This document shows, in pieces, positions 3,419 through 38,270 of a stretch of 45,020 nucleotides of DNA (its first letter is position 1; the number at the start of each line of letters is the position of its first letter). The notes under the pieces were generated by a model. The model saw only the letters and a program-made list of their open reading frames with translations. It was not told the origin of the DNA and did not search any database. The stretch is taken from contig JADHXV010000002.1 in NCBI GenBank assembly GCA_016782785.1, forward strand, positions 1 through 45,020, in the 5' to 3' direction. The stretch is from Planctomycetota bacterium. GTDB taxonomy: Bacteria; Planctomycetota; Phycisphaerae; FEN-1346. A program made the position numbers and the translations under genes.

Positions 3419-4728
3419 GATATGTCTCGGGAGAACACGGTATGGCCCCCCTTGTGGGAAGCGGCTGCGGTCTTCAGCACCAGGCGGACGTTCTCTACCG
3501 CTTGGCGGTGAACCTCTGGGAGGCGCTCCGCAATTTCCCTGCGAACCGCTTCGCGCTCTGCCCAGAGCCTGTGGATCAGGCTGTGGAATGAGGCCGTCTC
3601 GGCCTTCTCCCAGTTCAGCGCGAAGCGGTCCTGACCCAGCAGGCTCATCATCTCGACGTACTTGTGGCTCCAACCGAGGGCCGCCGTCGGCACGCCCGAC
3701 GATAACGCGGCCACGAGCATGTGGAACCGCGACCCCAGCGCCACCGTCCCCCGAGCAATGATGCCCTTCAGCACCGGGGCGCCAAATGCGTCCTCCAGTA
3801 TGTGGATACGCTCAGGCTGCTCCGAGAGCGAGCGGATCCGATGGCATACATGTACATCATCCAAGCCCGGCGTCGTGGAAACAGAACGCGCGTGCGGCAC
3901 CAGCAATACCGGCTGACCCGAGAGCCGAGCCAGAATGTCGCCCCCTTCCGCCATCAGCCGGGCGTATCCGTCAGGCCCGTGTTTCGGGCGCATCAGCGAC
4001 TCGACCAGATAATTCGGCCCGACAACGCAATAGGGGTCGCCCGGCGCCAAGCCTGCGGTTTCAAGGGCGCGGTCGACTTCGTCGGGTGGAGCGGGTTCCA
4101 GGCCAAAAGCTACGTCGGGCAGTTCGTGTACGGTCCGATGGGGCAGCAGCGCGCGGACCAACGAGGCGCTGCGAGGGCCGCGGGCGACCAGAACGGCAGC
4201 GCGATCCAGCAGCCAGCGGCCTGCCCACCGGACCCAGGGCTTGGTGAACGGCCCCATCGCTTGCGAAGCCTTGACGAACGGGATACCCGTGGCGGTGGCC
4301 GGAAGCAGCCACAAGGAGTTTATGACCAGGCCTGAAACCGGCCGGTCGTCCGTGAATGAAATCCCGGAGAGGTCGACCAGCACGTCGTGCGTGGCGTAAG
4401 GCCGGAACGGACCCCGTGCCAGCCATCTGTGCGGCAGGTGGAACCGCCGCAAGAGGCCGGCGACAGCCGAGAATGGCACACCCAGGAACATCTGGACGTA
4501 GGTCGGGAAGCGGAACATCTGCCATCCCAGCGTCCGGCATATCTCTTCTTCCTCATTCGGATATTTGGACAAAATGGTGATCCGAATGTTCTCGTCCAAA
4601 CGGCGCGCCGTCTGGGCCATGGTCAAATAGAGTGCCGGCCCGCCCATGTTGCCCGTCAGGCAGGCTCCGCACAGAAGGAGACGAACCTCATGGCGGCCCG
4701 CGTTCGATTCTTGTGGCGGTTGAGTCAT
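3415..4728 (-). CDS. polysaccharide pyruvyl transferase family protein (WcaK/CsaB-like)
   Basis: 437-aa ORF. The N-terminus is LLLCGACLTGNMGGPAL and the length and layout resemble WcaK-type pyruvyl transferases. ATGA overlap with the methyltransferase stop. Confidence 0.75.
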   Translation of the reverse strand: MTQPPQESNAGRHEVRLLLCGACLTGNMGGPALYLTMAQTARRLDENIRITILSKYPNEEEEICRTLGWQMFRFPTYVQMFLGVPFSAVAGLLRRFHLPHRWLARGPFRPYATHDVLVDLSGISFTDDRPVSGLVINSLWLLPATATGIPFVKASQAMGPFTKPWVRWAGRWLLDRAAVLVARGPRSASLVRALLPHRTVHELPDVAFGLEPAPPDEVDRALETAGLAPGDPYCVVGPNYLVESLMRPKHGPDGYARLMAEGGDILARLSGQPVLLVPHARSVSTTPGLDDVHVCHRIRSLSEQPERIHILEDAFGAPVLKGIIARGTVALGSRFHMLVAALSSGVPTAALGWSHKYVEMMSLLGQDRFALNWEKAETASFHSLIHRLWAEREAVRREIAERLPEVHRQAVENVRLVLKTAAASHKGGHTVFSRDIS

Positions 4729-7027: not shown

Positions 7028-7390
7028 CTACTCGCTGATGGCCTTCCACCCTTCGTTCAGGTCGCGGAGGCAGTCGATGACCTCCTGGATGCGCTGCGGG
7101 TCGCGGCGGGTGTTGGCCTCGCTGAGGTGGCGGATCATGAAGTGATAGAGTCCGCGGAGGTTGGCCGCCACCTCGCCGCCGATCTCCACGTCGAGGCAGG
7201 CGTCCAGTTCGTTCAGGATCGCCAGGGCCTTGTTGATGAATCGGCCCTTGGCCACGCAGTTGCCGGCCGCCAGTTCGCGCTTGGCCTGCTCGAGGAACTT
7301 GATGGCCCCTTCGTACAGCAGCACCACGAGCCGGCCGCGCGTCTGCGTGGCGACCGCGTGTTCCTGGTAGGTTCGGATGTCCCCGTTCAT
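7028..7390 (-). CDS. fliS: flagellar export chaperone FliS
   Basis: YQEHAVATQTRGRLVVLLYEGAIKFL... is a four-helix FliS pattern. It sits directly after fliD. I chose the start at MNGD (AAGGA 8 nt upstream). An alternative ATG lies at 7399. Confidence 0.9.
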   Translation of the reverse strand: MNGDIRTYQEHAVATQTRGRLVVLLYEGAIKFLEQAKRELAAGNCVAKGRFINKALAILNELDACLDVEIGGEVAANLRGLYHFMIRHLSEANTRRDPQRIQEVIDCLRDLNEGWKAISE

Positions 7391-7409
7391 CTCACACATC
7401 CTTTCTGTT

Positions 7410-9068
7410 CTACTCGCTGAACCACATCGCCAGGGCGCCGCGCTGGGCCTCGATCATCGTCAGGGTGCGCTCGAGCCTGGCGAAGCGGTCTCGCAGGGAG
7501 GCTTCCAGCCGGGTCAGCCGGGCCTGCTGCCGTTCAATGTGGTCGTCGATGGTGTCGATGGCGCTCTGACACCGATCTTTGACCAGCGTGACGGCCCCGT
7601 CGGTGGCGTCGAGCAGGTCGTCGATGGCATCGTACAGGCGGCCGGCGAAGCCCTGCCGCACGCGGACCTCGGCCTCGACCGTCCCGGTGCCCGCGTACGA
7701 GGCGGTCACCTGGAGGAACGCCTCGGGGTGGTTGGCGTCGCCGATGATGACGCCCGCCTGGACCGTGGCGTCGCGCCAGGCGTCCTGGCCTTCGTCGGCG
7801 CCCTTGATCTGGGCCGAAACGAGTACGCCGCTCTCGAAAACAGCCCGCACGTCGTATGTGCCGGGCTCGGTCGGGCTGCCTGCGCCGTAGAAGCGGAGAA
7901 TGTCCGAGTCGCTCGCGCCCGTGCGGTTGGCCCCGAAGAGGCCCAGCAGGCCCAGGTAGTTCTCGCCGATCGCCTCGTTGAACGTCCCTTCGTCGAACTC
8001 CAGCGTCCCGTAGCGGTCGATGCTCAGGCCCACCTGGCCGGCCAGCGTGAAGGCGTCGGCGCCGTCGAGGAAGCCCTCGGCGGCCTCGATCAGGGGCAGG
8101 CGGATGGCCCGGTGGACGGTGTTAGGCGTGAACTCGCCCATCAGCACGCCCGCCGTGTTGGTGGCCGCGTCGTACGCCGTCTTCTGCCGGATGTACCCGA
8201 CGACCGAGTTATAGGCGCTCGTGAACGCGCTGATCTTGGTCTTCAGGCCTTCGGTGTCGCGGCTGAGGCTGATGCGGACGGTCTCGTCGTCGCCCGTCGG
8301 GGCATGCAGGTTCAGCGTGACGCCCGGCAGGATGTCGCTGATCGAATTGGTGCTCCGCGAAATCCACGCCCCCGACGGGTACCCGTCCACGCGCACCTGG
8401 GCGTCGCGGGCCGACTGGGTCTCGGTGAACGTGCTGGTCCGCAGGTCCACCGTGCCGCCCGTGCCGTCCAGGGTCGTCTGGGCGTCCTCGAGGGTCACGG
8501 CGTAGTCGGCGCCCGTGTCGTTGCCGCTGAGGACGAGGTGATACACCTGGTCGCCGCCCGCGTCGTACCGGAGGATGCTGGCGGTGACGCCCGGGTTGCC
8601 GCCGTCGTTGTTGATGAGGTCGCGGAGGGCCTCGAGCGTGGTCTCGTCGGTGGTCTGGATGATGCGGGTCTCGCCGTTGTAGGTGTAGGCCAGCACGCCT
8701 TCGCCGACGAGCGTGTCCAGGCCGGCCAGGCCGGCGTGGACCTGGCGTTCGGCGGCGGCGAGTTGGTTGATTTCGATTTCGTGGGCGCCCTCGCTGGCGC
8801 CGGTGCCGACCGCGACCGTAAGCCGCTCGGTGTTGTTCGACGCCGCGGTGTAGGCCCGGAGGCTGGACGTGGTCCGGATGGCGTCGACGGCGGACCGGAG
8901 CGACTCCAGGCGGGTCTGGAGCGTCGCGAACGCCGCCTGCTTGCTTTCCCAGTTGGACCGGCGGGCCTGGAGTTGTTCCAGCGGCCCGCGCGACGCCGCC
9001 ACCAGTTGCTGGACGATCAACTGGGTGTCGATGCCGGTCTGGAGTCCTGGCAGTGTGATGGTCGGCAC
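7410..9068 (-). CDS. fliD: flagellar filament cap protein FliD (HAP2)
   Basis: 552-aa ORF with FliD N-terminal (GIDTQLIVQQLV) and C-terminal coiled-coil regions (RFARLERTLTMIEAQ). GTG start. Located between fliC and fliS. Confidence 0.92.
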   Translation of the reverse strand: MPTITLPGLQTGIDTQLIVQQLVAASRGPLEQLQARRSNWESKQAAFATLQTRLESLRSAVDAIRTTSSLRAYTAASNNTERLTVAVGTGASEGAHEIEINQLAAAERQVHAGLAGLDTLVGEGVLAYTYNGETRIIQTTDETTLEALRDLINNDGGNPGVTASILRYDAGGDQVYHLVLSGNDTGADYAVTLEDAQTTLDGTGGTVDLRTSTFTETQSARDAQVRVDGYPSGAWISRSTNSISDILPGVTLNLHAPTGDDETVRISLSRDTEGLKTKISAFTSAYNSVVGYIRQKTAYDAATNTAGVLMGEFTPNTVHRAIRLPLIEAAEGFLDGADAFTLAGQVGLSIDRYGTLEFDEGTFNEAIGENYLGLLGLFGANRTGASDSDILRFYGAGSPTEPGTYDVRAVFESGVLVSAQIKGADEGQDAWRDATVQAGVIIGDANHPEAFLQVTASYAGTGTVEAEVRVRQGFAGRLYDAIDDLLDATDGAVTLVKDRCQSAIDTIDDHIERQQARLTRLEASLRDRFARLERTLTMIEAQRGALAMWFSE

Positions 9069-9170: not shown

Positions 9171-9998
9171 CTACCGCAGCAGCGAGAGGGCCAACTGCGG
9201 CATGGTGTTGGCCTGGGCCAGCATGGCGACGCCGGCCTGCGCGAGCACCTGGTTGCGCGTCATCCTCGCCATTTCCTGGGCGACGTCGACGTCGGAGATG
9301 CGGCTTTCGGCGGCGGCCAGGTTCTCGGCCTGGATGTTGAGCACCGACACCGTGTTCTCGAGGCGGTTGATCTTGACGCCGAACGAGGCGCGGGCCTCGT
9401 CCTTGTCATCGATGGCCGTCCCGAGCGCCGCCAGGGCCGACTGGGCCTTTCCCATGTCCGTGATGGCGAGGCTGGAGAGGCCCAGACCCGTCTTGGACAC
9501 GTCGACCTTGTTGACCTCGATGTAGTCGACGTTGGCCGTTGAGCCCGACCCGACCTGGATCTTCACCGCCGTCCCCGCGCTGTCGTTGAGCAAGCCGATG
9601 CTGTTGAAGGCGGTGGACTTGGCGATACGGTCGATCTCGTTGGCCATTTCCTGGAACTCGTCGTCCATCATGGCGCGCTGCGTGGTCGAGTAGGACCCGG
9701 TGGCGGCCTGTGCGGCGAGTTCTTTCATCCGCACCATGCAGTCGTCGATGGTCTGCAGGGCGCCTTCAGCGGTCTGAAGCATGCTGATGCCGTCCTGGGC
9801 GTTCGAGGCGCCCTGCCTCAGCACCGCGATGTCCGCCCGCATCAACTCGCGGACGGCCAGACCGGCCGCGTCGTCCGCCGCACTGTTGATGCGGAGGCCC
9901 GACGACAGCCGCTCCACGGACTTGGCCAGCGTGTCGTACGACGTGGCCAGGTGCCGCGCTGCGTTTTCTGCCATGAGGTTGTTCTTGATCGCGAGCAT
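9171..9998 (-). CDS. fliC: flagellin (short, D0/D1-only type)
   Basis: MLAIKNNLMAENAARHL...LSSGLRINSAADDAAGLAV at the N-terminus and ...VLAQAGVAMLAQANTMPQLALSLLR at the C-terminus. The protein is 275 aa. GGGAG Shine-Dalgarno sequence upstream of the ATG at 9998. Sigma-28 promoter upstream. Confidence 0.95.
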   Translation of the reverse strand: MLAIKNNLMAENAARHLATSYDTLAKSVERLSSGLRINSAADDAAGLAVRELMRADIAVLRQGASNAQDGISMLQTAEGALQTIDDCMVRMKELAAQAATGSYSTTQRAMMDDEFQEMANEIDRIAKSTAFNSIGLLNDSAGTAVKIQVGSGSTANVDYIEVNKVDVSKTGLGLSSLAITDMGKAQSALAALGTAIDDKDEARASFGVKINRLENTVSVLNIQAENLAAAESRISDVDVAQEMARMTRNQVLAQAGVAMLAQANTMPQLALSLLR

Positions 9999-10143
9999 GG
10001 TTTTCTCTCCCTTTAACCGAACCGAGTTTTGGCGTTTGTGCGAGCCCCAGCAGCCCACACCTCTGACACGTGTTCATGTGGCGGCGCGACCGTCGGCGGC
10101 ATCCTGCGTCCGATGATTGTCACCGCCATGCTTCGGGATTTCA

Positions 10144-10170
10144 TTATCGACGGGCCGAAACGATACTTTA
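10144..10170 (-). promoter_or_regulatory. sigma-28 (FliA) promoter of fliC
   Basis: The minus strand reads TAAA-gtatcgtttcggccc-GTCGATAA. This is TAAA, a 15-nt spacer, then 7 of 8 matches to GCCGATAA. It lies about 145 nt upstream of the fliC ATG. Confidence 0.75.
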
Positions 10171-10435
10171 GGACTTTCGCCGACGCCCCTTGAGTTCACG
10201 GGGTGAAATCCCGCTCAGAAGACGCAGCACGGGGGTGATGGTCGTGAGCCCGCCGCGGAAGCGGCGGGTCATCCGCCTCGGCCAAGGCCCGTGACATGCC
10301 GAGGGAACGTGACCGGCCGCTCCCGCGGCCGGCTCGCGGCGCGCCAGGAGGGCAAGAAGAAGGCCTGGCACCCGATATATGGGGGCCAGGCCCTGTCATT
10401 GCCCTCTATGATGGGCTACTACGCGGTTTCCGGGA

Positions 10436-10726
10436 CTAGATGCCGATCGTCAGGATCGCCTCGGCCGCCCGTTCGGCCGCCTCGGCCGTATCCAGGGCGC
10501 CGGAGGCCAGGAGGCGTTTCGCCTCGGCCACGGCCTCGGCCCGGACGGCTTCCTCGTCGCCCGTACTGGCCTGGGCGAGGTACGCCTGAAGGTCGGCGGC
10601 GTCCGGCCGGTCCGTTTCGTCCGGTTTCGGGCCGGCGCCATGGGCCGCCGGACCCGGCGGCTGGGGCTGACGGCTGCCGTCCGGCAAGCCGAGGGGGTCG
10701 GAGCCTTGTGTCGGTTCGATCTGCAT
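10436..10726 (-). CDS. flgM: probable anti-sigma-28 factor FlgM-like protein
   Basis: 96-aa protein with a disordered Pro/Gly-rich N-terminus. The C-terminal VRAEAVAEAKRLLASGALDTAEAAERAAEAIL matches the FlgM pattern (V..lK.aI..G.y.vd.e.iA..il). GGAGAGG Shine-Dalgarno sequence. It is the last cistron of the fliA array. Confidence 0.55.
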   Translation of the reverse strand: MQIEPTQGSDPLGLPDGSRQPQPPGPAAHGAGPKPDETDRPDAADLQAYLAQASTGDEEAVRAEAVAEAKRLLASGALDTAEAAERAAEAILTIGI

Positions 10727-10817
10727 AACGGCCTCTCCGTCTGAACCTTCGCCACCCGTATTTTCGTGGTCCCCGGCGACGACTTGAGAACAAAGTTGGC
10801 CGACAGCCGGATTTTTT

Positions 10818-11474
10818 CTAAAGTTTTCCGGCGGCCACTTCCGTCCTGTCGGGCGGCCGGCACGGCAGGGTCTCGGTCGCCTCGTGGGCGACGAACTTCT
10901 GGAACGCCCGCGGACTGACGGTGCCGAGTTCCCATCCGAACGGTTCGGTGCCTTCGCCGGCCTCCCGGCAGAAGAAGCGGCGGAGGCGGCGCTGGGTGTG
11001 CTCGTCGGTCGTGTCCCAGACGTGGTCGACGGCCCAGAGGACGCGGCCGGTCCGCAGGTCGACGAGCCGCAGGTACAGGCCCATCTGCATCCTCGGGTAC
11101 GGCTGCCAGCGGGTGACGGCTCCGGCCAGGACGGCGTCGGCCCCGAGCGTGCTGCGCAGTCGGGCCAGGTCGGTCAGCGTCATGGGGGCGGTGCCGACGT
11201 TCGGCAGGTCGGCGGCCCGGGCGGCGTCGGCCGGCACCGGCAGCACGTGAAACAGCCGGCAGGCCTGGACGGCCTGAAACAGTTCCTCGGTCAGGCCGAG
11301 TTCGGTGCCGGGGTGGTCGGTCTCGTTGGTCAGCGGCAGGAGGGCCACACGCTGGACCGAGACGATGTCGCGCCGCGGGGCGGCATAGTGGCCCACGCGG
11401 TTCATCGCTTCGGGCGCGCACCCCGCCAGCACGAGGACGGCTGCGAGGACGCCGATGTTACTGGCCCGCGTCAC
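10818..11474 (-). CDS. lipoprotein, LpoB/CsgG/FlgO-like alpha-beta pattern (function unknown)
   Basis: GTG start. Lipobox LVLAGC at residues 15-19. The pattern VALLPLTNETD...TEELFQAV...DAVLAGAVTRW...LYLRLVDLRTGRVLW is typical of small periplasmic lipoproteins of that fold. It overlaps the upstream gene by 17 nt. Confidence 0.6.
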   Translation of the reverse strand: MTRASNIGVLAAVLVLAGCAPEAMNRVGHYAAPRRDIVSVQRVALLPLTNETDHPGTELGLTEELFQAVQACRLFHVLPVPADAARAADLPNVGTAPMTLTDLARLRSTLGADAVLAGAVTRWQPYPRMQMGLYLRLVDLRTGRVLWAVDHVWDTTDEHTQRRLRRFFCREAGEGTEPFGWELGTVSPRAFQKFVAHEATETLPCRPPDRTEVAAGKL

Positions 11475-12048
11475 CGGTGGCTCCTTCCGAGGCTGTGCCG
11501 GTGGTTCCGGTGCCCTGTTCCGCGGTGGCGGTGGGAGTGGAGGCGGCGGTGGCGGCCGGGGCCGATTCGGGCACCTCGCCGCCCAGCAGCCGGAGCACTT
11601 TGTGCAGGGCGTCCAGTTCCGCCAGGTGGGCGCCGCGCATTTCGTCGCGGTAGCCGAGGACGTCGGTCTTCCACTTGTCGTTGGCGCGGCGGACGTCGAT
11701 GAGGAGGCTGTTGGCGTCCTGGAGTTCCTTCTGGGTCTGGGCGAGTTCGCCCCGGAGACCGACGACGGTCTGGCCCAGTTGGCGGTTTTCGTCGGCGAGG
11801 CGGCGGTTCTCCTGCTCGCGGCGCGAGATCTCTTCGACGGCCCGGGCGTATTTCTCGGACCAGACCAGCGCGCTCTCGACGGCCGTCGGCGTCTCGGTCT
11901 GCCCGTCGGGCGCCATGGCCGTTTCCTTCAGATACGGGGCCTGGTCGGTGGGCGACAGGGCCTCGGCGGGCCCATCGCGCCGGGTGCCGAACGAGCAGCC
12001 GGCCACGGTCAATGCCAGGGCCAGGGCGACGGGGACGATGCGTTTCAT
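11458..12048 (-). CDS. coiled-coil lipoprotein (function unknown)
   Basis: Trimmed to MKRIVPVALALALTVAGCS (lipobox), with AAGGAGG 7 nt upstream. The centre is a heptad-rich coiled coil (EQENRRLADENRQLGQTVVGLRGELAQTQKELQDAN). The tail is Thr/Ala/Gly-rich. Confidence 0.65.
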   Translation of the reverse strand: MKRIVPVALALALTVAGCSFGTRRDGPAEALSPTDQAPYLKETAMAPDGQTETPTAVESALVWSEKYARAVEEISRREQENRRLADENRQLGQTVVGLRGELAQTQKELQDANSLLIDVRRANDKWKTDVLGYRDEMRGAHLAELDALHKVLRLLGGEVPESAPAATAASTPTATAEQGTGTTGTASEGATGDAGQ

Positions 12049-12341
12049 CAGGTTGCCTCCTTGTTTGCATGGCGGCCGTTGTCGGGCGCGCCGGGGCCAT
12101 CGCCCCCGGCGGCCTCGGGTACCGGCCATCGGCACTCGACGTACATGACGTTACCGCAGGGGCAGTGCACTTCCAGGACGGCGTGGTCGTCGTGACGGTG
12201 CGCGATGCGGACCTGGGCGTTCGCGCCGTCCGGCGGCGCGGCGCCCGGCCTCGGCCCCGGCCGAGGCGCGGAGCCGGCCGGCGAGGCCGGTGCGGTCCGA
12301 ACGCGATGTTTCTTGATGACGGAGGCCATGTTGGCTGGCAC
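12048..12341 (-). CDS. small conserved-looking hypothetical protein with a CxC...C motif
   Basis: 97 codons with high GC3. GTG start with AAGGA about 10 nt upstream. Core sequence is VRIAHRHDDHAVLEVHCPCGNVMYVEC. Its stop overlaps the start of the next lipoprotein gene. I recognise no family. Confidence 0.45.
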   Translation of the reverse strand: MPANMASVIKKHRVRTAPASPAGSAPRPGPRPGAAPPDGANAQVRIAHRHDDHAVLEVHCPCGNVMYVECRWPVPEAAGGDGPGAPDNGRHANKEAT

Positions 12342-12373
12342 GGCAGATGGTTCCTTTCGTTCGTTTCAGGCGG

Positions 12374-12631
12374 TCAGGCCAGGGTGTCGACCACGTGGTC
12401 CTTTCCGTTGCTGGACGGTTTCGCAGGCGTCGGCTCCTGGACGTTGGGTTCGGTGTCGGCGGGCACGGGGGCAGCGGCCGACGTCTTGCCCTTGCCGCCG
12501 CGTCGGCGCCGGCGGGAGCCGGGCGGCGTCCGGTTCGGCAGCCGCTTGTCCTGTTGCGAGATGGGCGCGGTCTCGGCGATTTCGCGTCCGCGGTCGGGCC
12601 CGTTGACGGCGTAGTTGCTGGCGCTGGTCAT
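12374..12631 (-). CDS. small basic, disordered hypothetical protein translationally coupled to fliA
   Basis: The internal ATG at 12629-12631 forms an ATGA overlap with the fliA stop. It has 85 codons, about 90% of them ending in G/C. Sequence is MTSASNYAVNGPDRG...RRRRRGGKGK... I recognise no family. Confidence 0.45.
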   Translation of the reverse strand: MTSASNYAVNGPDRGREIAETAPISQQDKRLPNRTPPGSRRRRRGGKGKTSAAAPVPADTEPNVQEPTPAKPSSNGKDHVVDTLA

Positions 12632-13410
12632 GACGTCTCGCCCCCCAGTCGCATGGACAGCCTGAACAGGGCGCCGGCGTGGACCTGGCTGACGCGGGAC
12701 TCGGTCACGCCGAGCACCTCGGCCACCTCCTTCATGGTGAGGTCGCGTTCGTAGTACAGGAGGACGACGCGGCGTTCGCGTTCGGGCAGTTCCTGGATAG
12801 CCTGGGCCAGCCGGCGCGTCGTCTCGCGTTTCTGGGCCTGGTGGTCGGGCGAGGTGGTCGTGGCGGGGATAAGGTTGGCCAGGCACGGTTCATCGTCACC
12901 GAGGCCGTAGATGGACAGGAAATGCTGCCGGCGGGCCTCCTGGACGGTGCGGTAGTAGGCCTGCAGGGACAGGCCGGCCCGGTCGGCCAGTTCCTGGTCG
13001 TTCGGAGGCCGGCCGGCGTCGGCCAGGAAGGCGGCGTGGGCCTGGCGGATGCGGCGGACCTGGCGGTGGACATCGGTCGAGGCGAACGACCGGCTCCGCA
13101 GTTCATCGATGACGGCCCCGCGGACGCGGATGTAGGCGTAGGTCTTGAACTCGGCGTGCCTGTCGGGGTCGTAGGCGCGGGCCGCCCGCACCAGGCCCAC
13201 GGTGCCGGCCGAGACGAGGTCGTCGGTGTCGACCCGTCGGCCGAGGTGGGCGGTGACCTTGCGGACGATGTGGTGGACGAGCGGGATGTACTCGACGATG
13301 AGCCGGTCCTGGAGGGCCTGGGCCGACTCCTGGGCGTAGGCCGCCTGCGCCCGGCTCTGGACGTGGGCGTTGGGGGGGTCGGTCACGGTCGGTTCCATGG
13401 GCGCGCTCAC
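12628..13410 (-). CDS. fliA: flagellar sigma factor FliA (sigma-28)
   Basis: Region 2 (LVSAGTVGLVRAARAYDP...FKTYAYIRVRGAVIDELR), region 3, and region 4 (LPERERRVVLLYYERDLTMKEVAEVLGVTESRVSQVH) are all present. GTG start at 13410. An alternative ATG lies at 13398. Confidence 0.93.
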   Translation of the reverse strand: MSAPMEPTVTDPPNAHVQSRAQAAYAQESAQALQDRLIVEYIPLVHHIVRKVTAHLGRRVDTDDLVSAGTVGLVRAARAYDPDRHAEFKTYAYIRVRGAVIDELRSRSFASTDVHRQVRRIRQAHAAFLADAGRPPNDQELADRAGLSLQAYYRTVQEARRQHFLSIYGLGDDEPCLANLIPATTTSPDHQAQKRETTRRLAQAIQELPERERRVVLLYYERDLTMKEVAEVLGVTESRVSQVHAGALFRLSMRLGGETS

Positions 13411-13634
13411 CGCAGGTGCTCCTCACGCCGATGCGACGGGTTCGGGCCGCTGCGGATGACCGAGACGAGGATGCGGATGGCCATCCGGCCGGCGATGGTC
13501 GTCAACACGTAGGCCACAAACGCCCCCGCCAGCGCCCGCAGGCTGCAGACGAAGGGCGGCACGCCGCTGGCCGTCCCGATGGCGGCCAGCAGGAGGAGCG
13601 TGAAGACCGCGACGCTGGTGGCGATGCCTCTCAT
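13407..13634 (-). CDS. small two-TM membrane protein (function unknown)
   Basis: 75 codons with high GC3 and two hydrophobic helices. Its stop overlaps the fliA GTG (GTGA). It occupies the flhA-fliA interval where flhF/flhG usually lie. Confidence 0.5.
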   Translation of the reverse strand: MRGIATSVAVFTLLLLAAIGTASGVPPFVCSLRALAGAFVAYVLTTIAGRMAIRILVSVIRSGPNPSHRREEHLR

Positions 13635-13673
13635 CGGTTTCGTGGTTCCCGGCTGGTGCTACAGGGCTACTTC

Positions 13674-13704
13674 CCGCGCGGTGGGTCTCCTGACCCGCCG
13701 CGCA
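13674..13704. repeat. GC-rich palindromic element (REP-like), inverted copy
   Basis: GCGCGGTGGGT-CTCCTG-ACCCGCCGCGC. Its reverse complement matches the CGCGGCGGGT-nnGGAG-ACCCGCCGCG family. Confidence 0.7.
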
Positions 13705-13722
13705 CGGCTGCGTTCGCCCTTC

Positions 13723-13752
13723 TCGCGGCGGGTGCGGAGACCCGCCGCGCGG
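13723..13752. repeat. GC-rich palindromic element (REP-like)
   Basis: CGCGGCGGGT-GCGGAG-ACCCGCCGCGCGG, with a perfect 10-bp stem. It lies between flhA and the small 2-TM ORF. Confidence 0.7.
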
Positions 13753-13766
13753 CACTCGTCTCTCTA

Positions 13767-15947
13767 TCACGTCGCGCCGGCCGCCGCAGCGACCGGGGTC
13801 CGTCCGGCGCGGCCCCCCTTGGCCGCGGGCGGCGCCACGTTGGCGGCGGCCGGCGCGGCCGGGGCGGCGGGGACGGTCGCCACCGAGTCCACCGGGGTGC
13901 CGACGGCCACCTCGTCGTAGGCCAGGATCGGCAGGTCCGGCAGTTGCCGCGACAGCATCGCCGCCATGTGAGGCCGGAGCCGGTAGTCGCACAAGAGGAC
14001 GGCCTTCTCGTGGCCCTCGTTCATGGCCTTGTGCCAGGCCTGGCCGATGCGGCGCGCGAGGTCCAGGGCCCGGTCCGGGGCCAGGGCGAGCGTCTCGCTC
14101 GCGCCTTCCTGCGCCAGGAGGCCGCGGAGTTCGTACTCCAGGCTCGGCTCCAGGACGACCGCCTGGACGTGGCCGAGATCGTCGGCGTGCTGCTCGCTGA
14201 CGGTCCGGGCCAGAACCTTACGGACCAGTTCGGTCAGCAGCGAGGGGTCCCTGGTGCCGGCGGCATGGTCGCCCAGGGTTTCGATAATCTGCGGGAGGTT
14301 GCGGATCGGGATACGGTCCTTCAGGAGGTTCTGGAGGACGCGGTGCAGGAGGCCGAGAGGCACATTCTCGCCCACCACGCCGCCCACCAGCGTCGGCTCG
14401 CGTTCCCGCAGCCGGTCGACCAGGGTCTGGACGTCGTCGCGCGACAGAATCTCGTGGGCGTGCCGGCGGAGCGTCTCCGACAGGTGCGTGACCAGGACCG
14501 ACTCGGGGTCCACGACGGTGTAGCCGGCCAAGGTGGCCTCTTCCTTCTGGTCGGGCGTGATCCAGAGGGCCGGCAGGTTGAAGACCGGCTCCTTGGTGGC
14601 CTGGCCCTTGATGGGCTGGGTGACGGTGCCGGGGTCCATGGCGAGGAACCGCTCGGCCTCGAGCCGACCGGTCGCCACCACGTGGCCGTGGATACGGATT
14701 TCATAGACGTTGGGGTCCAGGGCCATCTGGTCGCGCAGTCGCACCAGGGGCAGGACGATGCCGTAGTCCTGGGCGAACCGGCGCCTGAGCGGCCCGATGC
14801 GGTGGAAGACGCTGTCCTTGCGGCGGGGGTCGACGGTCCGAATGAGCCGGGCGCCCACCTGGACGGCGATGCGGTCGACGTCGAGCATCGTCTCGACGGG
14901 CGGCTCGTCGCCCGGCTCGGCGGCCTTCGGTTCGGGCGGCTTGGCCAGGGCGCGGTGTTCGCGCTGGGCCAGCGTCCGGGCCAGCAAGCCCGCCCCGAGC
15001 GAGAGCACGATGAACGGCACCTTCGGGAATCCCGGCACGAAGACCATGGCGCCGAAGAGGACGGCCGCGATGCCGATGGGCCGGCTCCGGGCGAACATCT
15101 GGCGGACCAGGTCGTGGCTCAGGCTTTCGAGCGTGGAGGTCTTCGAGATCAGAAAGCCCGCCGACGTGGAGATGACGATGGCGGGAATCTGGCTCACCAG
15201 GCCGTCGCCGATGGCCAGTATCGAGTACGTTTCGGCGCTCTGGGCCAGGCTCATGCCGCGCGTCAGGCCGATGACCATGCCGCCCACCAGGTTGACCGCC
15301 GTGATGATAAGGCCGGCGATGGCGTCGCCGCGGATGAACTTGCTGGCACCGTCCATGGCGCCGTAGAACTCGCTCTCGCGGACGATCTTCTCGCGGCGGG
15401 CCTTGGCCTCGTTTTCGTTGATGAGCCCGGCGTTGAGGTCGGCGTCGATGCTCATCTGCTTGCCGGGCATGGCGTCGAGGTTGAACCGGGCGGCCACCTC
15501 GCTGATGCGCTCGGCGCCTTTGGTGATGACGATGAACTGGATGACCACCAGGATCAGAAACACCACCAGGCCGATGGTCAGGCTGCCGCCCGCCACGAAC
15601 TGGCCGAACGTCTGGATGATGCGGCCGGCGTCGCACTGCATCAGAATGAGGCGCGTGGACGCCACGTTCAGGCTCAGCCGGAAGAGCGTCAGAAACAGCA
15701 GCAGCGACGGGAACGTCGAGAGTTCCACCGACTCGCGCGTCGAGAGGACCACGATCATGGTCCCCACGGCCAGGGCGATGCTGCACGCCAGCAGCAGGTC
15801 CAGCAGGAACGTCGGCAGGGGAATCAGCAGCGTGGCCAGGACCATCGCCAGGCCGAACGCGAACAGGATGTCGTTGTGCGCCACGAGGCGCCCAAAGGTG
15901 CTCGTGTCCTTCGGGCCGGCGTTCGGGATGGGGGTCAGGCCCGGCAT
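13767..15947 (-). CDS. flhA: flagellar type III export gate protein FlhA
   Basis: 726 aa. Conserved FlhA TM region (FPSLLLFLTLFRLSLNVASTRLIL), FHIPG-like linker and cytoplasmic domain. Confidence 0.96.
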   Translation of the reverse strand: MPGLTPIPNAGPKDTSTFGRLVAHNDILFAFGLAMVLATLLIPLPTFLLDLLLACSIALAVGTMIVVLSTRESVELSTFPSLLLFLTLFRLSLNVASTRLILMQCDAGRIIQTFGQFVAGGSLTIGLVVFLILVVIQFIVITKGAERISEVAARFNLDAMPGKQMSIDADLNAGLINENEAKARREKIVRESEFYGAMDGASKFIRGDAIAGLIITAVNLVGGMVIGLTRGMSLAQSAETYSILAIGDGLVSQIPAIVISTSAGFLISKTSTLESLSHDLVRQMFARSRPIGIAAVLFGAMVFVPGFPKVPFIVLSLGAGLLARTLAQREHRALAKPPEPKAAEPGDEPPVETMLDVDRIAVQVGARLIRTVDPRRKDSVFHRIGPLRRRFAQDYGIVLPLVRLRDQMALDPNVYEIRIHGHVVATGRLEAERFLAMDPGTVTQPIKGQATKEPVFNLPALWITPDQKEEATLAGYTVVDPESVLVTHLSETLRRHAHEILSRDDVQTLVDRLREREPTLVGGVVGENVPLGLLHRVLQNLLKDRIPIRNLPQIIETLGDHAAGTRDPSLLTELVRKVLARTVSEQHADDLGHVQAVVLEPSLEYELRGLLAQEGASETLALAPDRALDLARRIGQAWHKAMNEGHEKAVLLCDYRLRPHMAAMLSRQLPDLPILAYDEVAVGTPVDSVATVPAAPAAPAAANVAPPAAKGGRAGRTPVAAAAGAT

Positions 15948-27661: not shown

Positions 27662-28679
27662 GGCCGGTCTTGTCCTCGAAGGTGAGTTTGCCCGCGGCAT
27701 TGAGTTGCCGCAGTTCGCTGAGGGTCCTCTCTCTCGCCGCCTCGATGTCCTCCACCTCGGGCTTGCGCATCAGCGAGATCTCTTCGTCGATCATGGCGGC
27801 GGCCCGTTCCGAGATGTTGCTGCGAATCTTCTGCTCGATCTTCGGGTCGGCGCCCTGGATGGCCAGGGCCAGTTGCTCGGCGTCCATGGTGCGGAGGATG
27901 TCCTGGAGGTTGCGGTCGGCCAGGACGAGCAGGTCTTCCCAGGTGACCATGAGGTCCTGGATCTCGCGGGCCTGGTCGGCGTTCTGCTGGCGGATGCTCT
28001 CCAGGAGCGTGTCGCGCAGCTCGCGGCGGAGACGGCGCATCAGGAGGGCCACCCGCCGAAGCCGGTCGTCGGGCGAAGCCTGGGCCGGCCGGGCGCCGCC
28101 GCTCTGCTGCTGCTGCTGCGCTTTCTGCTGGGCATCGAGGCGGTCGCGGATGAGGGCGGCCACGCGGGTCTGGGCCTCGACCGAAACGCGTTCCCCCATG
28201 GCCATCCGCCGGACCGCCTGGCCGCGCACCGACTCCTCAAGCATCGGGATGAGGGTGGCGCTTCGCTCGGGCGGCAGTTCCATCAGGACCATGGCGGCGG
28301 CCTGGGGATGCAGGCCCCGGAGGGCCTCGGCCAGGGCCGGCACCTCGGCCTGGCGGATGGGGATGAACGGGTCCCGGCCGTCGACCATCCGCCGGACCTC
28401 GCCCAGGAGGTCGTCCAGTCGGTCCCGGCCGACGGCGCTGGCGACCATGCTCTGGAGGAACGATTCGGTGTTGCGTCCCCCGCCGTTGTGCAGCAGGCCG
28501 AGGAACTCGACGGCCGGCTGGGCGCCGCCCTCGGCCTGGCCGGTGGCGTCCATGTAGACGAGTTCGGCGACGATCTGTTTGACGACGTCGGGCGAAGTGG
28601 CCTTGAGCAGTTCCCCGGCGATGTCGGGATCAAGGCTCCGGAGGAGCAGGGCGGCTTTTCGGACTCCCGTCTCGGCCAC
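27639..28679 (-). CDS. fliG: flagellar motor switch protein FliG
   Basis: 346 aa. RKAALLLRSL, EVEDIEAARERTLSELRQL and ARM-like repeats. GTG start abuts the fliF TAA. Confidence 0.95.
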   Translation of the reverse strand: MAETGVRKAALLLRSLDPDIAGELLKATSPDVVKQIVAELVYMDATGQAEGGAQPAVEFLGLLHNGGGRNTESFLQSMVASAVGRDRLDDLLGEVRRMVDGRDPFIPIRQAEVPALAEALRGLHPQAAAMVLMELPPERSATLIPMLEESVRGQAVRRMAMGERVSVEAQTRVAALIRDRLDAQQKAQQQQQSGGARPAQASPDDRLRRVALLMRRLRRELRDTLLESIRQQNADQAREIQDLMVTWEDLLVLADRNLQDILRTMDAEQLALAIQGADPKIEQKIRSNISERAAAMIDEEISLMRKPEVEDIEAARERTLSELRQLNAAGKLTFEDKTGHGPGPTG

Positions 28680-30221
28680 TTAAGCGGCTCCCTGCTGCTG
28701 GACCCACGTGCGGAACAGCCGTTTCACCTCGTCGGGGTTATCCTGAAGCGCGGTGGCGATGCGTTCGTTCAGGCGGGCGGAGTCGGCGGAGCGGGGCACG
28801 CCCGGCCCCAGCAGGTGGCCGGCGCCGACGCCCGGGCCGACCTCCATCGCCGCCCCGACCAAGGCGCCCTCGGCGGCGGCCTTGCGTTTCGACCCGCCGA
28901 AGATCTTCAGCGCCACCAGGGCCCCGAGGACCAGGATGCCGACCGAGGCGTGGCGGGCGGCGTCGAGGTAGAACTGGGGATTGGCCAGGAAGTCCACCTC
29001 TTCGGCGGTCTCGGCGGCCGCGTCCGGCCGGTGGAATCGGCAACTGACGACCTTCAACTCGTCGGTTTCCTTCAGGCCGATGGCCCGGCGGATGATCTCC
29101 TCGGCGTCGGTGACCGTCAGCGCAGGCGCCGGCGGGGAGGCCGTCTCCGCCGGCGCCTGGCCTTCTTCGGCTGCACGCGTCTCGGGGGTCGAGAGATCGA
29201 CGAGCGCAGCCACCGACAGGGCAAGAATCTTGCCCGGCATGTTGATGGTCTGTTCAACGGTCCGGCCCACCTGGTACTCGTTGGTGGTGGTTTCTTCCTT
29301 GCTCTGGCCGGCCGAGGCGTCGGCCGTGGCGGGCACCTCGGACTTCGAGGTGATCTCTTCCTTGGTCACGACCTTGGCGCTGGGGTCGTACGTCTCCATG
29401 GTCTTGTTGGTGGTGGTGGTCTCGACCTGGGCGTCGACCTTGACAACGGCCCGCCCAGGCCCCAGGGCCAGCGTGAGCATCTGCTCGGCCTTGCGGGCCA
29501 GGTACTGTTCGACCTGGCTCTTGTAGTCGAGCACCGTGCCGCCGGTCCCCGCAAAGCCGCCCTCGGTGCCGGTTGAGAGCAGGGTGCCCTGGCTGTCGAC
29601 GACGACGACGTGCTCGGGGGTGAGGTTGTCGACGGCGCCGGCCACCATGTGGACGATGGCGGCGACGTTGCCCGGGGAGAGGGTTCGGCCGGGCCTGAGG
29701 CGCAGGGCGACCGTGGCCGAGGCCCCGCTCGTCTCCTTGCGGAACAGGCTTCCTTCGGCCTGGACGATGTGGATGCGGGCGTCGGCCACGCCGTCAATCA
29801 GGGCGATGGTCCGGGCCAGTTCGCCCTCCATCGCCCGGGTGAGGTTGACCTTCTGCGTGAACGGGCTGGCGCCGATCTTCTCGGAATCGATGATGCGGTA
29901 CCCCTGCTGGCCGCCGGCCGGCAGGCCGTCGCCGGCCATCCGGAGCCGGAGCGTGTGGATCTGCTCCACCGGAACGTAGATGCTGGTGCCGCCGTCCTTC
30001 AGGTCGAACGGGGTGTCGGCATCGCGGATCTTCTCGACGATCTCGGCGGCCTCCTGGGGTTCGAGCCGCGAGTACAGAAGGGCCATGTCCGGCTGCTGGG
30101 CCCATCCGACGAGCAGGGCGGCGGCGCCGCCGCAGGCCAGCAGCACCGAAACCAGGCCGATGCGCTGCATGAACCCAATCCGCCGCCAGGCTTCCAGGAC
30201 GCCTTGTAGGGAGTTACCCAC
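28680..30221 (-). CDS. fliF: flagellar MS-ring protein FliF
   Basis: 513 aa. N-terminal TM, RBM domains (LYSRLEPQEAAEIVEKIRDADTPFDL) and a C-terminal TM. GTG start with GAGG 5 nt upstream. Confidence 0.95.
   Translation of the reverse strand: MGNSLQGVLEAWRRIGFMQRIGLVSVLLACGGAAALLVGWAQQPDMALLYSRLEPQEAAEIVEKIRDADTPFDLKDGGTSIYVPVEQIHTLRLRMAGDGLPAGGQQGYRIIDSEKIGASPFTQKVNLTRAMEGELARTIALIDGVADARIHIVQAEGSLFRKETSGASATVALRLRPGRTLSPGNVAAIVHMVAGAVDNLTPEHVVVVDSQGTLLSTGTEGGFAGTGGTVLDYKSQVEQYLARKAEQMLTLALGPGRAVVKVDAQVETTTTNKTMETYDPSAKVVTKEEITSKSEVPATADASAGQSKEETTTNEYQVGRTVEQTINMPGKILALSVAALVDLSTPETRAAEEGQAPAETASPPAPALTVTDAEEIIRRAIGLKETDELKVVSCRFHRPDAAAETAEEVDFLANPQFYLDAARHASVGILVLGALVALKIFGGSKRKAAAEGALVGAAMEVGPGVGAGHLLGPGVPRSADSARLNERIATALQDNPDEVKRLFRTWVQQQGAA

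Positions 30222-31577: not shown

Positions 31578-31599
<22 letters not shown>
31231..31599 (-). CDS. flgB: flagellar proximal rod protein FlgB
   Basis: Trimmed to MDQSARITDYLEAGLRAANLRQSVIAGNIANMATPGYRR...LVKNSLLYKTYARLL. The rest of track ORF 31231..32820 is a shadow of the regulator gene. Confidence 0.92.
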
Positions 31600-32965
<1,366 letters not shown>

Positions 32966-32969
<4 letters not shown>

Positions 32970-33781
32970 GGACTCACACCTTCCGTCGGCTTCGTTACCG
33001 CGTTCGACGCCGCGGCATTCGTCGCGGCCGCGCCGGGCAGGGGCGCCAGCAGCGTCTGCGGCTGCGTCTGGGTTTGCCACTGGAGGAGGTTCTTGCGGAC
33101 CTTGGCGGCCTCGACCCAGGGCGACTCGGGGTGCTCGGTCACCAGCCGGTCGTAGAGCGCGAGGGCCGCCGCCGCGTCGCTCTGCCGCTTGCAGTTCGCC
33201 GCCTGGTAGAGCACCCACGCCCGGGCCATGGCGCCGAGCGACCCGTCCGCCAGCAGCCGCTCGTACAGGGCGGCGGCCTCGGCCGGGTGCCCGCCCAGGA
33301 ACAGGGCGTCGGCCAGGCCCATCGGTTCGCCCAGGCGGTCGAGCGACAGGTCCTTCACGCGTGTCAGTTCCTCCTCCGTGAGGACCGGCGACGCCTGCGT
33401 CGCGGCCCGAGGCGGCGCCTCGCCGGCACCGTCGGCGGCGGGCGTCGTGGCTGCCTCGGTGGGTTCGGCCGGCCTCGGTTTCGCGATCGGCCGCTCCAGC
33501 GCCTCGCGCAGACGCCGCATCGCCTCTTCCAGGTCGACCGACGGGGCCGAGGGCGGCGGGACGTCGATCTGCGAGTCCATCAGCCGCGCGCGGTTCTCCC
33601 GCACCTCGCGCAGCAGACCGTCACCGGTGGCGTTGCCCGCGCTGTCGCCCGAAACCGTGCCCGCGCTGCCGGCCGCGGGTGCAGTCGCGCCGTCGGCCGG
33701 CCCGCCCGCCGGCGGACCCGCCGCGGCGCTCCCAAGCGCCAAACTCACCACCGCCAGCGCGAGCGCCAGGGTGCGTGTCAC
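32966..33781 (-). CDS. secreted TPR/Sel1-like repeat protein
   Basis: GTG start overlapping the upstream stop (GTGA). Signal peptide is MTRTLALALAVVSLALGSAAA. A Pro/Ala-rich linker is followed by helical repeats (ADALFLGGHPAEAAALYERLLAD...AWVLYQAANCKRQSDAAAALALYDRLVTEHP). Confidence 0.7.
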
Positions 33782-36282: not shown

Positions 36283-36359
36283 GCGTGCGCTCAGTCCTGG
36301 TTCGCGTGTGCCCGGGCCGCTCCGCGCCAGAGCGCGGGCGCAGCCGTGCGGAGGTTGGG

Positions 36360-36375
36360 TGCAACCGGCGTGCCA
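36360..36375 (-). promoter_or_regulatory. sigma-54 promoter (-24/-12) of the TPR-regulator-flgB operon
   Basis: The minus strand reads TGGCAC-GCCGG-TTGCA, an exact match to the TGGCAC-N5-TTGCW consensus. It lies about 80 nt upstream of the ATG at 36282. Confidence 0.75.
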
Positions 36376-36570
36376 AACGGGTTCTGGAACTGCCGAAGGG
36401 GGAAAATCGCTGCTTTCGGCCCGGAAGTGCAATTCGGCGCCAGCGTCGACGCCGCCGTCCGCCCGGTCCGGCGTAAGGATTTCGGCCGGGCGTTCGGTTT
36501 TCAGACGCGCCGCGGGCCAACCCCATATTCGGCGCGGCGGGACTCCGGTCCCGCAGCGTGAAGCGTGAAG

Positions 36571-36599
36571 CGCGGTGGGTCGGGAGACCCACCGCGCGG
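36571..36599. repeat. GC-rich palindromic element (REP-like)
   Basis: CGCGGTGGGT-CGGGAG-ACCCACCGCGCGG. The two arms carry compensatory changes that preserve pairing. It lies between the FleQ-like gene and the sigma-54 promoter. Confidence 0.7.
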
Positions 36600-36625
36600 G
36601 AATCTGTTCGAGCAGGGATGCCGGA

Positions 36626-38094: not shown

Positions 38095-38270
38095 CGACCA
38101 CTTCCCCCGACGCTTGCTGGTGGAACGTCCTGAAGAGGGGAGGCGGCACGTTGTCCGGCTGGTGCGGCCTAGTCGTGGCGCGTGGCGGCATGTTGCCCGC
38201 GCCGGACATCCCCCCGCGTGCTCTTGGGGCACTACAGTGTCGGCAAGGACGAAACGCCGGCTTTAGCCGA

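Follow-up and report, generated by a model that had tools for sequence, protein, structure and literature searches.

What do the five open reading frames (ORFs) that follow the sigma-28 gene fliA in a planctomycete genome encode, and are they part of its flagellar programme? We analysed 45,020 nucleotides (nt) of DNA from a Planctomycetota bacterium (assembly GCA_016782785.1, contig JADHXV010000002.1, positions 1 to 45,020), hereafter called the window, in which ORF1 to ORF5 all lie on the minus strand between positions 10436 and 12631 (Table 1). A preliminary description, drawn up from the letters of this DNA, had presented them as a five-gene module co-translated with fliA and made up of two small proteins, two lipoproteins and a FlgM-like protein. 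Here we show that ORF1 to ORF5 are real genes of the flagellar regulon and that, across the class, ORF1 to ORF4 extend the operon of the flgV-like gene and fliA, to which they are translationally coupled. Judged by sequence, ORF5 is likely a divergent FlgM, that is, a putative anti-sigma-28 factor. With confidence somewhat above even, we read the set as five flagellar-regulon genes of which ORF3 and ORF4 would provide an accessory of the basal body and ORF1 and ORF2 would act with sigma-28.

ORF1 to ORF5 are genes of the flagellar regulon

The preliminary description had taken the small and lipoprotein ORFs for true genes, and all measures agreed with it. The in-frame G+C content at third codon positions (GC3) was 0.88, 0.84, 0.88, 0.91 and 0.86 for ORF1 to ORF5, respectively, and that at second positions (GC2) was low, the same pattern as in fliA and fliC. 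The median pairwise ratios of nonsynonymous to synonymous substitution rates (dN/dS), determined by the Nei-Gojobori method for pairs with dS of 0.1-2, were 0.23, 0.21, 0.16, 0.13 and 0.14 in the same order, and the maximum of any pair was at most 0.49. The small ORFs had been expected to be conserved if the description held, and ORF1 and ORF2 are indeed conserved under purifying selection. The sequence of ORF4 is identical on two public metagenome contigs, where the gene caller calls all five genes. Conservation, dN/dS and these independent gene calls together rule out that ORF1 and ORF2 are spurious ORFs of GC-rich DNA.

Neither Pfam nor NCBIfam gave an above-threshold name for any of the five. 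Sensitive homology and structure searches, which the preliminary description had proposed, were rewarding for ORF4, which acquired a fold, and for ORF5, which proved FlgM-like; they returned no relative of known function for ORF1 or ORF2.

Conserved gene order and coupling to fliA

Related loci were gathered by a FliA scan with one genome per species, from which the 80 closest FliA loci were retained; Planctomycetia were not sampled, and the informatively named loci were those of Phycisphaerae, Sedimentisphaerales or Anaerohalosphaeraceae. The order flgV-like gene, fliA, ORF1 to ORF5 was found in every sufficiently long locus among about 80 Phycisphaerae-type loci, thereby bearing out the expectation that fliA would be followed by the same five genes in related genomes. 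Iterated profile searches of the ORFs downstream of fliA in 82 loci recovered ORF1 in 79, ORF2 in 80, ORF3 in 78, ORF4 in 76 and ORF5 in 71, and contig ends explained the missing ORFs in all loci except one (L027, discussed below). Plain tblastn placed ORF2, ORF3 and ORF4 after fliA in nearly all loci and detected ORF1 in the four closest only. Side-by-side reading of loci beyond the reach of tblastn showed that the gap between fliA and ORF2 holds an ORF with clear common motifs. The genomes concerned have a GC content of 0.43-0.72, and the ORFs are therefore not a by-product of high GC. Three Phycisphaerae homologues picked by similarity to ORF4 alone were all three located in the fliA module.

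The junctions are tight. As had been noted before, ORF1 overlaps fliA (by 4 nt in the window), ORF2 overlaps ORF3 by 1 nt and ORF3 overlaps ORF4 by 17 nt; the gap between ORF1 and ORF2 is 32 nt. The lipoboxes given for the two lipoproteins were likewise seen as described (Table 1). Among 77 loci, ORF1 starts inside the end of fliA in 51, with the 4-nt overlap in 26 of these, and within 30 nt of it in 16 others. Coupling to fliA thus stood for ORF1 to ORF4 and did not extend to the fifth gene, which is separated from ORF4 by a spacer of 91 nt that carries a sigma-28-type promoter motif. Because of this spacer and motif, the unit is better described as four fliA-coupled cistrons followed by one separately promoted gene.

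ORF5 and the sigma-28-type promoter motifs

The FlgM likeness claimed for the last gene was upheld by several comparisons. Conservation in the ORF5 family is confined to the C-terminal 45 residues, with the pattern V..A..LL.SG.LDTPEAA..AAE.IL..G. The top PDB match of the family profile was a FlgM chain (9wsf_B, E 0.0028), and 10 of 29 members matched Pfam FlgM (PF04316), the best with an E-value of 2.9e-5. In E. coli FlgM (b1071), the profile aligned to INLERVEALKLAIRNGELK, in the region of the C-terminal helices (hhalign E 5.8e-4, probability 29%). No second FlgM candidate was seen in the window or on the sister contig that continues it.

The motif T[ACT]AAG-N15-17-CGA[ACT]AA recurred in the ORF4-ORF5 spacers (41 of 68) and upstream of fliC (21 of 27), as compared to three matches in 174 kb of coding control. 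By this motif, ORF5 would be a separately promoted late gene. Its position behind a sigma-28-type promoter of its own would fit the usual feedback loop, with sigma-28 first driving the gene of its inhibitor and afterwards fliC-fliD-fliS. A third sigma-28-type match in the window (TTAAGT-N15-CCGAAAA, 28683..28656, minus strand) lies at the fliF-fliG junction and may be a chance occurrence or an internal promoter.

The lipoprotein and FlgM-like gene pair in a second lineage

A distinct branch of the ORF4 family ends in SPRRFGQY...TLP.R, and its names, where there are any, are Verrucomicrobiota and Limisphaerales; these names were taken from other members of the clusters. Two members of the branch (L083 and L084) adjoin fliD and fliS. 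Together with 43 loci from a metagenome scan with the lipoprotein branch alone, they made up a second-lineage set of 45 loci. Wherever the locus was long enough, the order was fliC, fliD, lipoprotein gene, a gene of about 95 amino acids (aa), fliS and a gene of 121 aa. The profiles of ORF1, ORF2 and ORF3 gave no match in L083 and L084, and tblastn with the window's ORF1 to ORF3 and FliA proteins gave none in any of the 45 loci.

By hhalign, the family of the ~95-aa gene and that of ORF5 are homologues (82 columns, probability 96%, E 4e-9), and 3 of 19 members of the former matched Pfam FlgM. Each of the 31 distinct spacers that separate the lipoprotein gene from the ~95-aa gene carried the motif T[ACT]AAG-N13-17-[CT]CGAT, which had 34 matches in the remaining 151 kb of the loci. 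The pair of lipoprotein gene and FlgM-like gene, with a putative sigma-28-type promoter between them, is therefore kept in a second lineage of the Planctomycetes-Verrucomicrobia-Chlamydiae (PVC) group. Since the same pair occurs in two different flagellar operons, the lipoprotein, the sigma-28-type promoter and the ORF5-family gene would constitute the conserved core of the arrangement.

No member of the ORF4 family was found in a non-flagellar context among those examined, so the prospect that the lipoproteins might be conserved only away from flagella did not materialise: in the loci examined, the family stood next to flagellar genes only. The genes are conserved, restricted to particular lineages and tied to flagellar genes by two arrangements that are independent of each other, in keeping with the lineage-specific flagellar set that had been envisaged. 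The 121-aa ORF after fliS in the Verrucomicrobiota-type loci (L083 6893-7258; same position in L088-L125) is conserved and has no Pfam match.

The lipoproteins ORF4 and ORF3

Glycine 18 and cysteine 19 of the ORF4 lipobox are invariant in 41 sequences. An AlphaFold2 model built from the alignment of these 41 sequences reached a predicted local distance difference test score (pLDDT) of 86 and a predicted template modelling score (pTM) of 0.81. When the model was compared with the PDB by Foldseek, PelC dodecamers came first (E 3e-9), with a template modelling score (TM) of about 0.65 normalised to PelC, and GNA1162 matched at E 2e-6. FlgT (3w1e) and the Vibrio LPHT ring (8z5n) followed at E of about 5e-5, and then CsgG and LpoB, the latter at E 1.7e-4 and above. 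In Pfam, ORF4 scored 19.6 bits against the GNA1162-like family (PF05643), whose gathering score is 25.9, and its matches to CsgG and LpoB were also weak. By its model, ORF4 is a predicted lipoprotein of the PelC/GNA1162/LpoB/CsgG/FlgT fold class, and the LpoB/CsgG-like pattern noticed earlier in its sequence corresponds to a fold of that type, in line with the model, the Foldseek matches and the weak Pfam matches alike.

The family is large: a profile search of 1.84 billion cluster representatives found at least 2280 relatives at E<=1e-3, of which 332 were at E<=1e-30. Its most conserved motif, SPRAFQKFV...TLP, is carried by extra C-terminal helices (residues 158-200). A hypothetical lipoprotein of Chlamydia trachomatis, CT253 (6uxc), has the ORF4 fold as well (Foldseek E 7e-6); the Chlamydiae, also of the PVC group, lack a flagellum and possess type III secretion.

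The alignment of 77 ORF3 sequences revealed a variable disordered linker followed by a coiled-coil domain, conserved over about 110 aa, with the motif AVESALeWS.KYa...eL.q.qkEL.eAN.lL.em..EL..WK.dVLGFRdEmR.Aq.AQleAL.kiL.lLGaE. Pfam returned only generic coiled-coil matches for ORF3 and for the family consensus, the best being DUF3450, below threshold. In the window the stop codon of ORF3 overlaps the start of ORF4. On otherwise near-identical contigs ORF3 has 198 aa (L081 9421-10017; L082 1097-1693) against 196 aa in the window, which appears to be a small strain-level difference in length.

The small proteins ORF1 and ORF2

A profile search found at least 865 relatives of ORF2, and every named one is called 'hypothetical'. 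In the alignment C60, C62, G63, C70 and A54 are invariant, and K10, V14, G18, Q43, R45 and E57 are nearly so. AlphaFold2 predicted a three-stranded beta-meander (strands 43-49, 53-59 and 65-71; pLDDT 83-88) with the remainder disordered, and the fold search with this model gave no match below E 0.75. The top PDB match of the profile was ribosomal protein L31 (RpmE), at E 0.13. In hhalign, residues 48-71 of ORF2 aligned onto residues 4-27 of E. coli L31 (probability 88.8%, 24 columns), a match that is suggestive only, because its pairwise E-value was computed after the lead was in hand. We infer that ORF2 is a cytoplasmic protein with an L31-like CxCG knuckle, a putative metal-binding hairpin. 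ORF2 was also considered as a zinc-binding anti-sigma (ZAS) domain and rejected, since its invariant C-x-C-G-x6-C lies on beta strands and is not the helical H-x3-C-x2-C.

ORF1 proteins are small and predominantly disordered (65-116 aa, median 77). Their conserved N-terminus reads roughly M.D.DY.I.KPVE.L.NI.GL.PV..REERK; a lysine/arginine-rich run and then an acidic low-complexity run make up the middle. The C-terminal motif x[IVL]D[YFTLV]x[AVLI] always forms the very last residues, with a near-invariant aspartate and a frequent histidine. Three identities were tried for ORF1 and discarded. A second FlgM was dismissed, as profile comparison of ORF1 with the ORF5 family and with E. coli FlgM gave no similarity. 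YjfB (PF14070, YjfB_motility) gave no match in 32 members (E<=1) nor with the family consensus (E<=10); this lead had come from a presumed likeness of the C-terminal ..ID..A end and from the listing of YjfB as a sigma-28 neighbour (PMC11607428). A split-off tail of FlgV, the family to which the gene upstream of fliA is compared below, would agree with the short tails of the local FlgV-like proteins, yet it found no support, as the C-terminus of B. burgdorferi FlgV (...IKTLMSKKE) is unlike x[IVL]D[YF]xA.

Possible roles of the five genes

We propose that ORF4, together with the overlapping coiled-coil lipoprotein ORF3, would form an envelope-anchored accessory of the basal body. This may be a ring or a scaffold close to the outer membrane or to the L and P rings, a counterpart of FlgT, FlgP and FlgO in other lineages, and its synthesis would fall in the fliA (middle) stage of assembly. 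PelC is a 12-mer ring under the outer membrane, and hence offers a plausible model for a ring accessory built from ORF4. Replacement of the L and P rings by the two lipoproteins is ruled out, as flgA, flgH and flgI lie just beyond the window; with flgH and flgI present, the lipoproteins would be accessories to these rings. For ORF1 and ORF2 a sigma-28-linked role may be supposed: both would be cytoplasmic and made in step with sigma-28, ORF2 as a small metal-binding hairpin and ORF1 as a disordered protein with two short binding motifs. Their most probable binding partners would be FliA, the export gate or one another, and in this way they may tune the activity or delivery of sigma-28.

Several observations weigh against this proposal. 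With flgH and flgI in place no ring is missing. The closest structural relatives of ORF4 are PelC and GNA1162 and not FlgT; the FlgT match covers one FlgT domain, with a TM of 0.26 on the FlgT side. LpoB, which has the same fold as ORF4, regulates a peptidoglycan synthase. The window's own ORF5 scored 13.5 bits against Pfam FlgM, for which the cut-off is 25 (E 0.086). ORF1 has no match in Pfam, NCBIfam or PDB, and ORF2 has no detectable relative of known function. ORF1 to ORF3 were not seen outside Phycisphaerae-type loci. L027 is without ORF1: there ORF2 begins 2 nt past the fliA stop and the remaining module is intact (3862-4196).

The main rival for ORF3 and ORF4 is a role in wall remodelling or as adaptors, because LpoB shares the fold and FlgJ is without an enzyme domain. 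The two lipoproteins would then be helpers in envelope remodelling, such as regulators of the LpoB type or adaptors for peptidoglycan synthases or hydrolases, and would open or repair the wall where the rod passes or aid penetration of the outer membrane. We consider this unlikely, while noting points in its favour: FlgJ, with 123 aa, is here confined to rod binding, which requires that a wall enzyme be recruited separately, and ORF3 and ORF4 are expressed with fliA, at the stage when rod and hook cross the envelope. However, the LpoB match is weaker than that to PelC, no peptidoglycan enzyme gene is conserved beside the module in the contigs examined, and the second-lineage gene is grouped with fliD and fliS, late genes whose stage follows passage of the rod.

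The main rival for ORF1 is that it is a substrate of flagellar type III export, a second disordered checkpoint that is exported after hook completion as FlgM is. ORF1 is small and disordered throughout, has a conserved N-terminus and is tightly coupled to fliA, and the FliA of Salmonella is an export chaperone of FlgM. We nevertheless hold this to be quite unlikely, as ORF1 has no similarity to FlgM, is absent from a locus (L027) that keeps the rest of the module, and has a strongly charged, basic-then-acidic middle that would seem unlike known early or late substrates.

Two bolder readings, which we regard as distinctly improbable, make ORF1 and ORF2 a new sigma-28 control pair, and the lipoprotein and the FlgM-like protein a functional couple. 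In the first, ORF1 and ORF2 would be made one-to-one with FliA, and the metal site begun by the three invariant cysteines of ORF2 would be filled by a ligand that a partner contributes, which could be the near-invariant aspartate or the frequent histidine of the C-terminal motif of ORF1. If true, this would add to FlgM a switch that senses metal or redox state. In the couple, a PelC-like lipoprotein ring in the outer envelope would receive or gate exported FlgM. That ORF1 to ORF4 are envelope or housekeeping genes unrelated to flagella, merely sharing the fliA transcript, would agree with the lack of an above-threshold match to any named flagellar family and is all the same highly improbable, given a gene order fixed across genomes of 43-72% GC, an ORF4 family that lies inside a different flagellar operon in the second lineage (45/45 loci examined) and no examined member in a non-flagellar context.

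Flagellar motors vary between lineages mainly by added periplasmic and regulatory parts. In the literature searched, the ORF1 to ORF5 families were not found described, nothing relevant was found on planctomycete motor structure or PelC-like flagellar lipoproteins, and no named flagellar accessory parts were found for the PVC group. Four families, so far 'hypothetical' or 'TolB-like' where they are named, thus gain a fixed place in the flagellar regulon and a fold or motif. The likely FlgM and the form of the sigma-28 promoter in these bacteria should be of help when their flagellar gene hierarchy is read from sequence.

The FlgV-like neighbour and the flagellar setting of the window

The gene upstream of fliA (Table 1) has homologues at that position in 63 loci, with C..RA..GA conserved, by inspection, at the start of the second transmembrane helix, and with short, polar tails without an obvious conserved C-terminal peptide. 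FlgV (BB0268 family) of type 1 has been described with two transmembrane helices, an arginine in the second of them, a polar tail and a position beside sigma-28, and has been reported in Phycisphaerae (PMC11607428). The match to this description fits assignment of the 75-aa gene to the FlgV family. The other usual neighbours of sigma-28 listed there are FapA, YjfB and a protein with transmembrane and helix-turn-helix regions (PMC11607428); in Pfam scans none of them corresponded to ORF1 to ORF4.

Table 1. Genes and promoter motifs around fliA, with positions in the window.
Feature	Positions	Strand	Description
FlgV-like gene	13407-13634	minus	75 aa, two transmembrane helices; end overlaps fliA start
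fliA (sigma-28)	12628-13410	minus	260 aa; Pfam Sigma70_r2, r3 and r4 all match
ORF1	12374-12631	minus	85 aa; ATG overlaps fliA TGA as ATGA; contains SRRRRRGGKGK
ORF2	12048-12341	minus	97 aa; GTG start, or ATG at 12329; 32 nt after ORF1; contains VLEVHCPCGNVMYVEC
ORF3	11458-12048	minus	196 aa, predicted lipoprotein; 1-nt overlap (TGATG) with ORF2; AAGGAGG 7 nt upstream; lipobox TVAGC
ORF4	10818-11474	minus	218 aa, predicted lipoprotein; GTG start; 17-nt overlap with ORF3; GGAAGGAG upstream; lipobox LAGC
Sigma-28-type promoter motif	10761-10787	minus	TCAAG-N16-CGAAAA, in the ORF4-ORF5 spacer
ORF5	10436-10726	minus	96 aa, FlgM-like; 91-nt spacer upstream
Near-consensus sigma-28 promoter (putative)	10144-10170	minus	TAAAGT-N13-GTCGATAA, upstream of fliC
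fliC (flagellin)	9171-9998	minus	Pfam match
fliD	7410-9068	minus	Pfam match; after fliC
fliS	7031-7453	minus	Pfam match; after fliD

Pfam and ORF scans showed that the window is a single large flagellar cluster. It contains two sigma-54 activator genes; flgC (or flgB), fliE, fliF, fliG, fliH and fliI; motA and motB; fliM, fliN, fliO, fliP, fliQ and fliR, then flhB and flhA; and the 75-aa gene, fliA, ORF1 to ORF5, fliC, fliD and fliS. On the opposite strand are fliK, flgD, flgE, a 370-aa gene, flgF and flgG. A sister contig directly continues the cluster just beyond the window with flgA, flgH, flgI, flgJ, flgN, flgK and flgL; its FlgJ is a single-domain protein, and flgN sits there with flgK with no FlgM gene adjoining. 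In agreement with this location, tblastn with E. coli FlgH and FlgI gave no match in the window or in the stretches of the loci, flgH and flgI being located outside them. Rfam had no match in the window, and the minus strand was free of terminator-like sites from 9900 to 13800.

Directly behind flhA come the FlgV-like gene and fliA (13634-13767); flhF and flhG, the usual neighbours, were not seen among the scanned ORFs of the window. The 370-aa ORF between flgE and flgF (42671-43783, plus strand) has no Pfam match and is gene-called on two other contigs (L086 and L087). The two sigma-54 activator genes flank a gene for a 985-aa tetratricopeptide repeat (TPR) protein (31581-33620, 33781-36735 and 37054-38262, minus strand) upstream of the flgC (or flgB)/fliE block. 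These activator genes suggest a sigma-54 tier above sigma-28.

Comparison with known systems

The core of ORF2, ENHPEYAVIEVTCSCG.K..I.C, aligns to the N-terminal zinc-knuckle hairpin of L31. Unlike L31, ORF2 is devoid of a second CxxC and of the HPFYTG region, has a third cysteine 8 residues past the knuckle, carries a conserved VLKK..V..G segment at its N-terminus and is disordered over long stretches. A ribosomal protein was therefore rejected as the identity of ORF2: the likeness to L31 is limited to the 24 aligned columns and does not extend to the full-length architecture, the rest being unrelated or disordered.

The Vibrio polar motor has H-ring accessories, FlgT, FlgO and FlgP, which are periplasmic proteins or lipoproteins with genes inside flagellar clusters; other lineage-specific motor lipoproteins are of this kind, and ORF4 would be so too. 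However, FlgT is a three-domain protein of about 350-380 aa, whereas ORF4 has a single domain in 218 aa, which sets it apart from the FlgT family. The ORFs scanned in the window and in L086 included no partner genes of the MotX/MotY and FlgO/FlgP kinds, and phylum and operon position differ between the Vibrio H-ring and ORF4.

PelC (5t10, 5t11, 9h80) and GNA1162 (4hrv) are lipoproteins with the same alpha/beta core as the ORF4 model. Both are outer-membrane lipoproteins with a TolB-N-like fold, and PelC works in polysaccharide export. In contrast to PelC, ORF4 has the added C-terminal helices 158-200, its sequence falls below the Pfam gathering threshold, and pel genes are not near it; all contexts examined were flagellar and none was a pel operon.

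ORF5 resembles FlgM in its size of about 95 aa, in its disordered N-terminal half, in a C-terminal helical motif that aligns to the sigma-28-binding region, and in its location near fliA and fliC with a sigma-28-type promoter motif. It differs in being very divergent, in not adjoining flgN and in always having the ORF4 lipoprotein gene ahead of it. FlgM, like motor lipoproteins particular to a lineage, is of an already known kind. ORF1 and ORF2 are the least explained of the five and the most likely to prove new in some respect.

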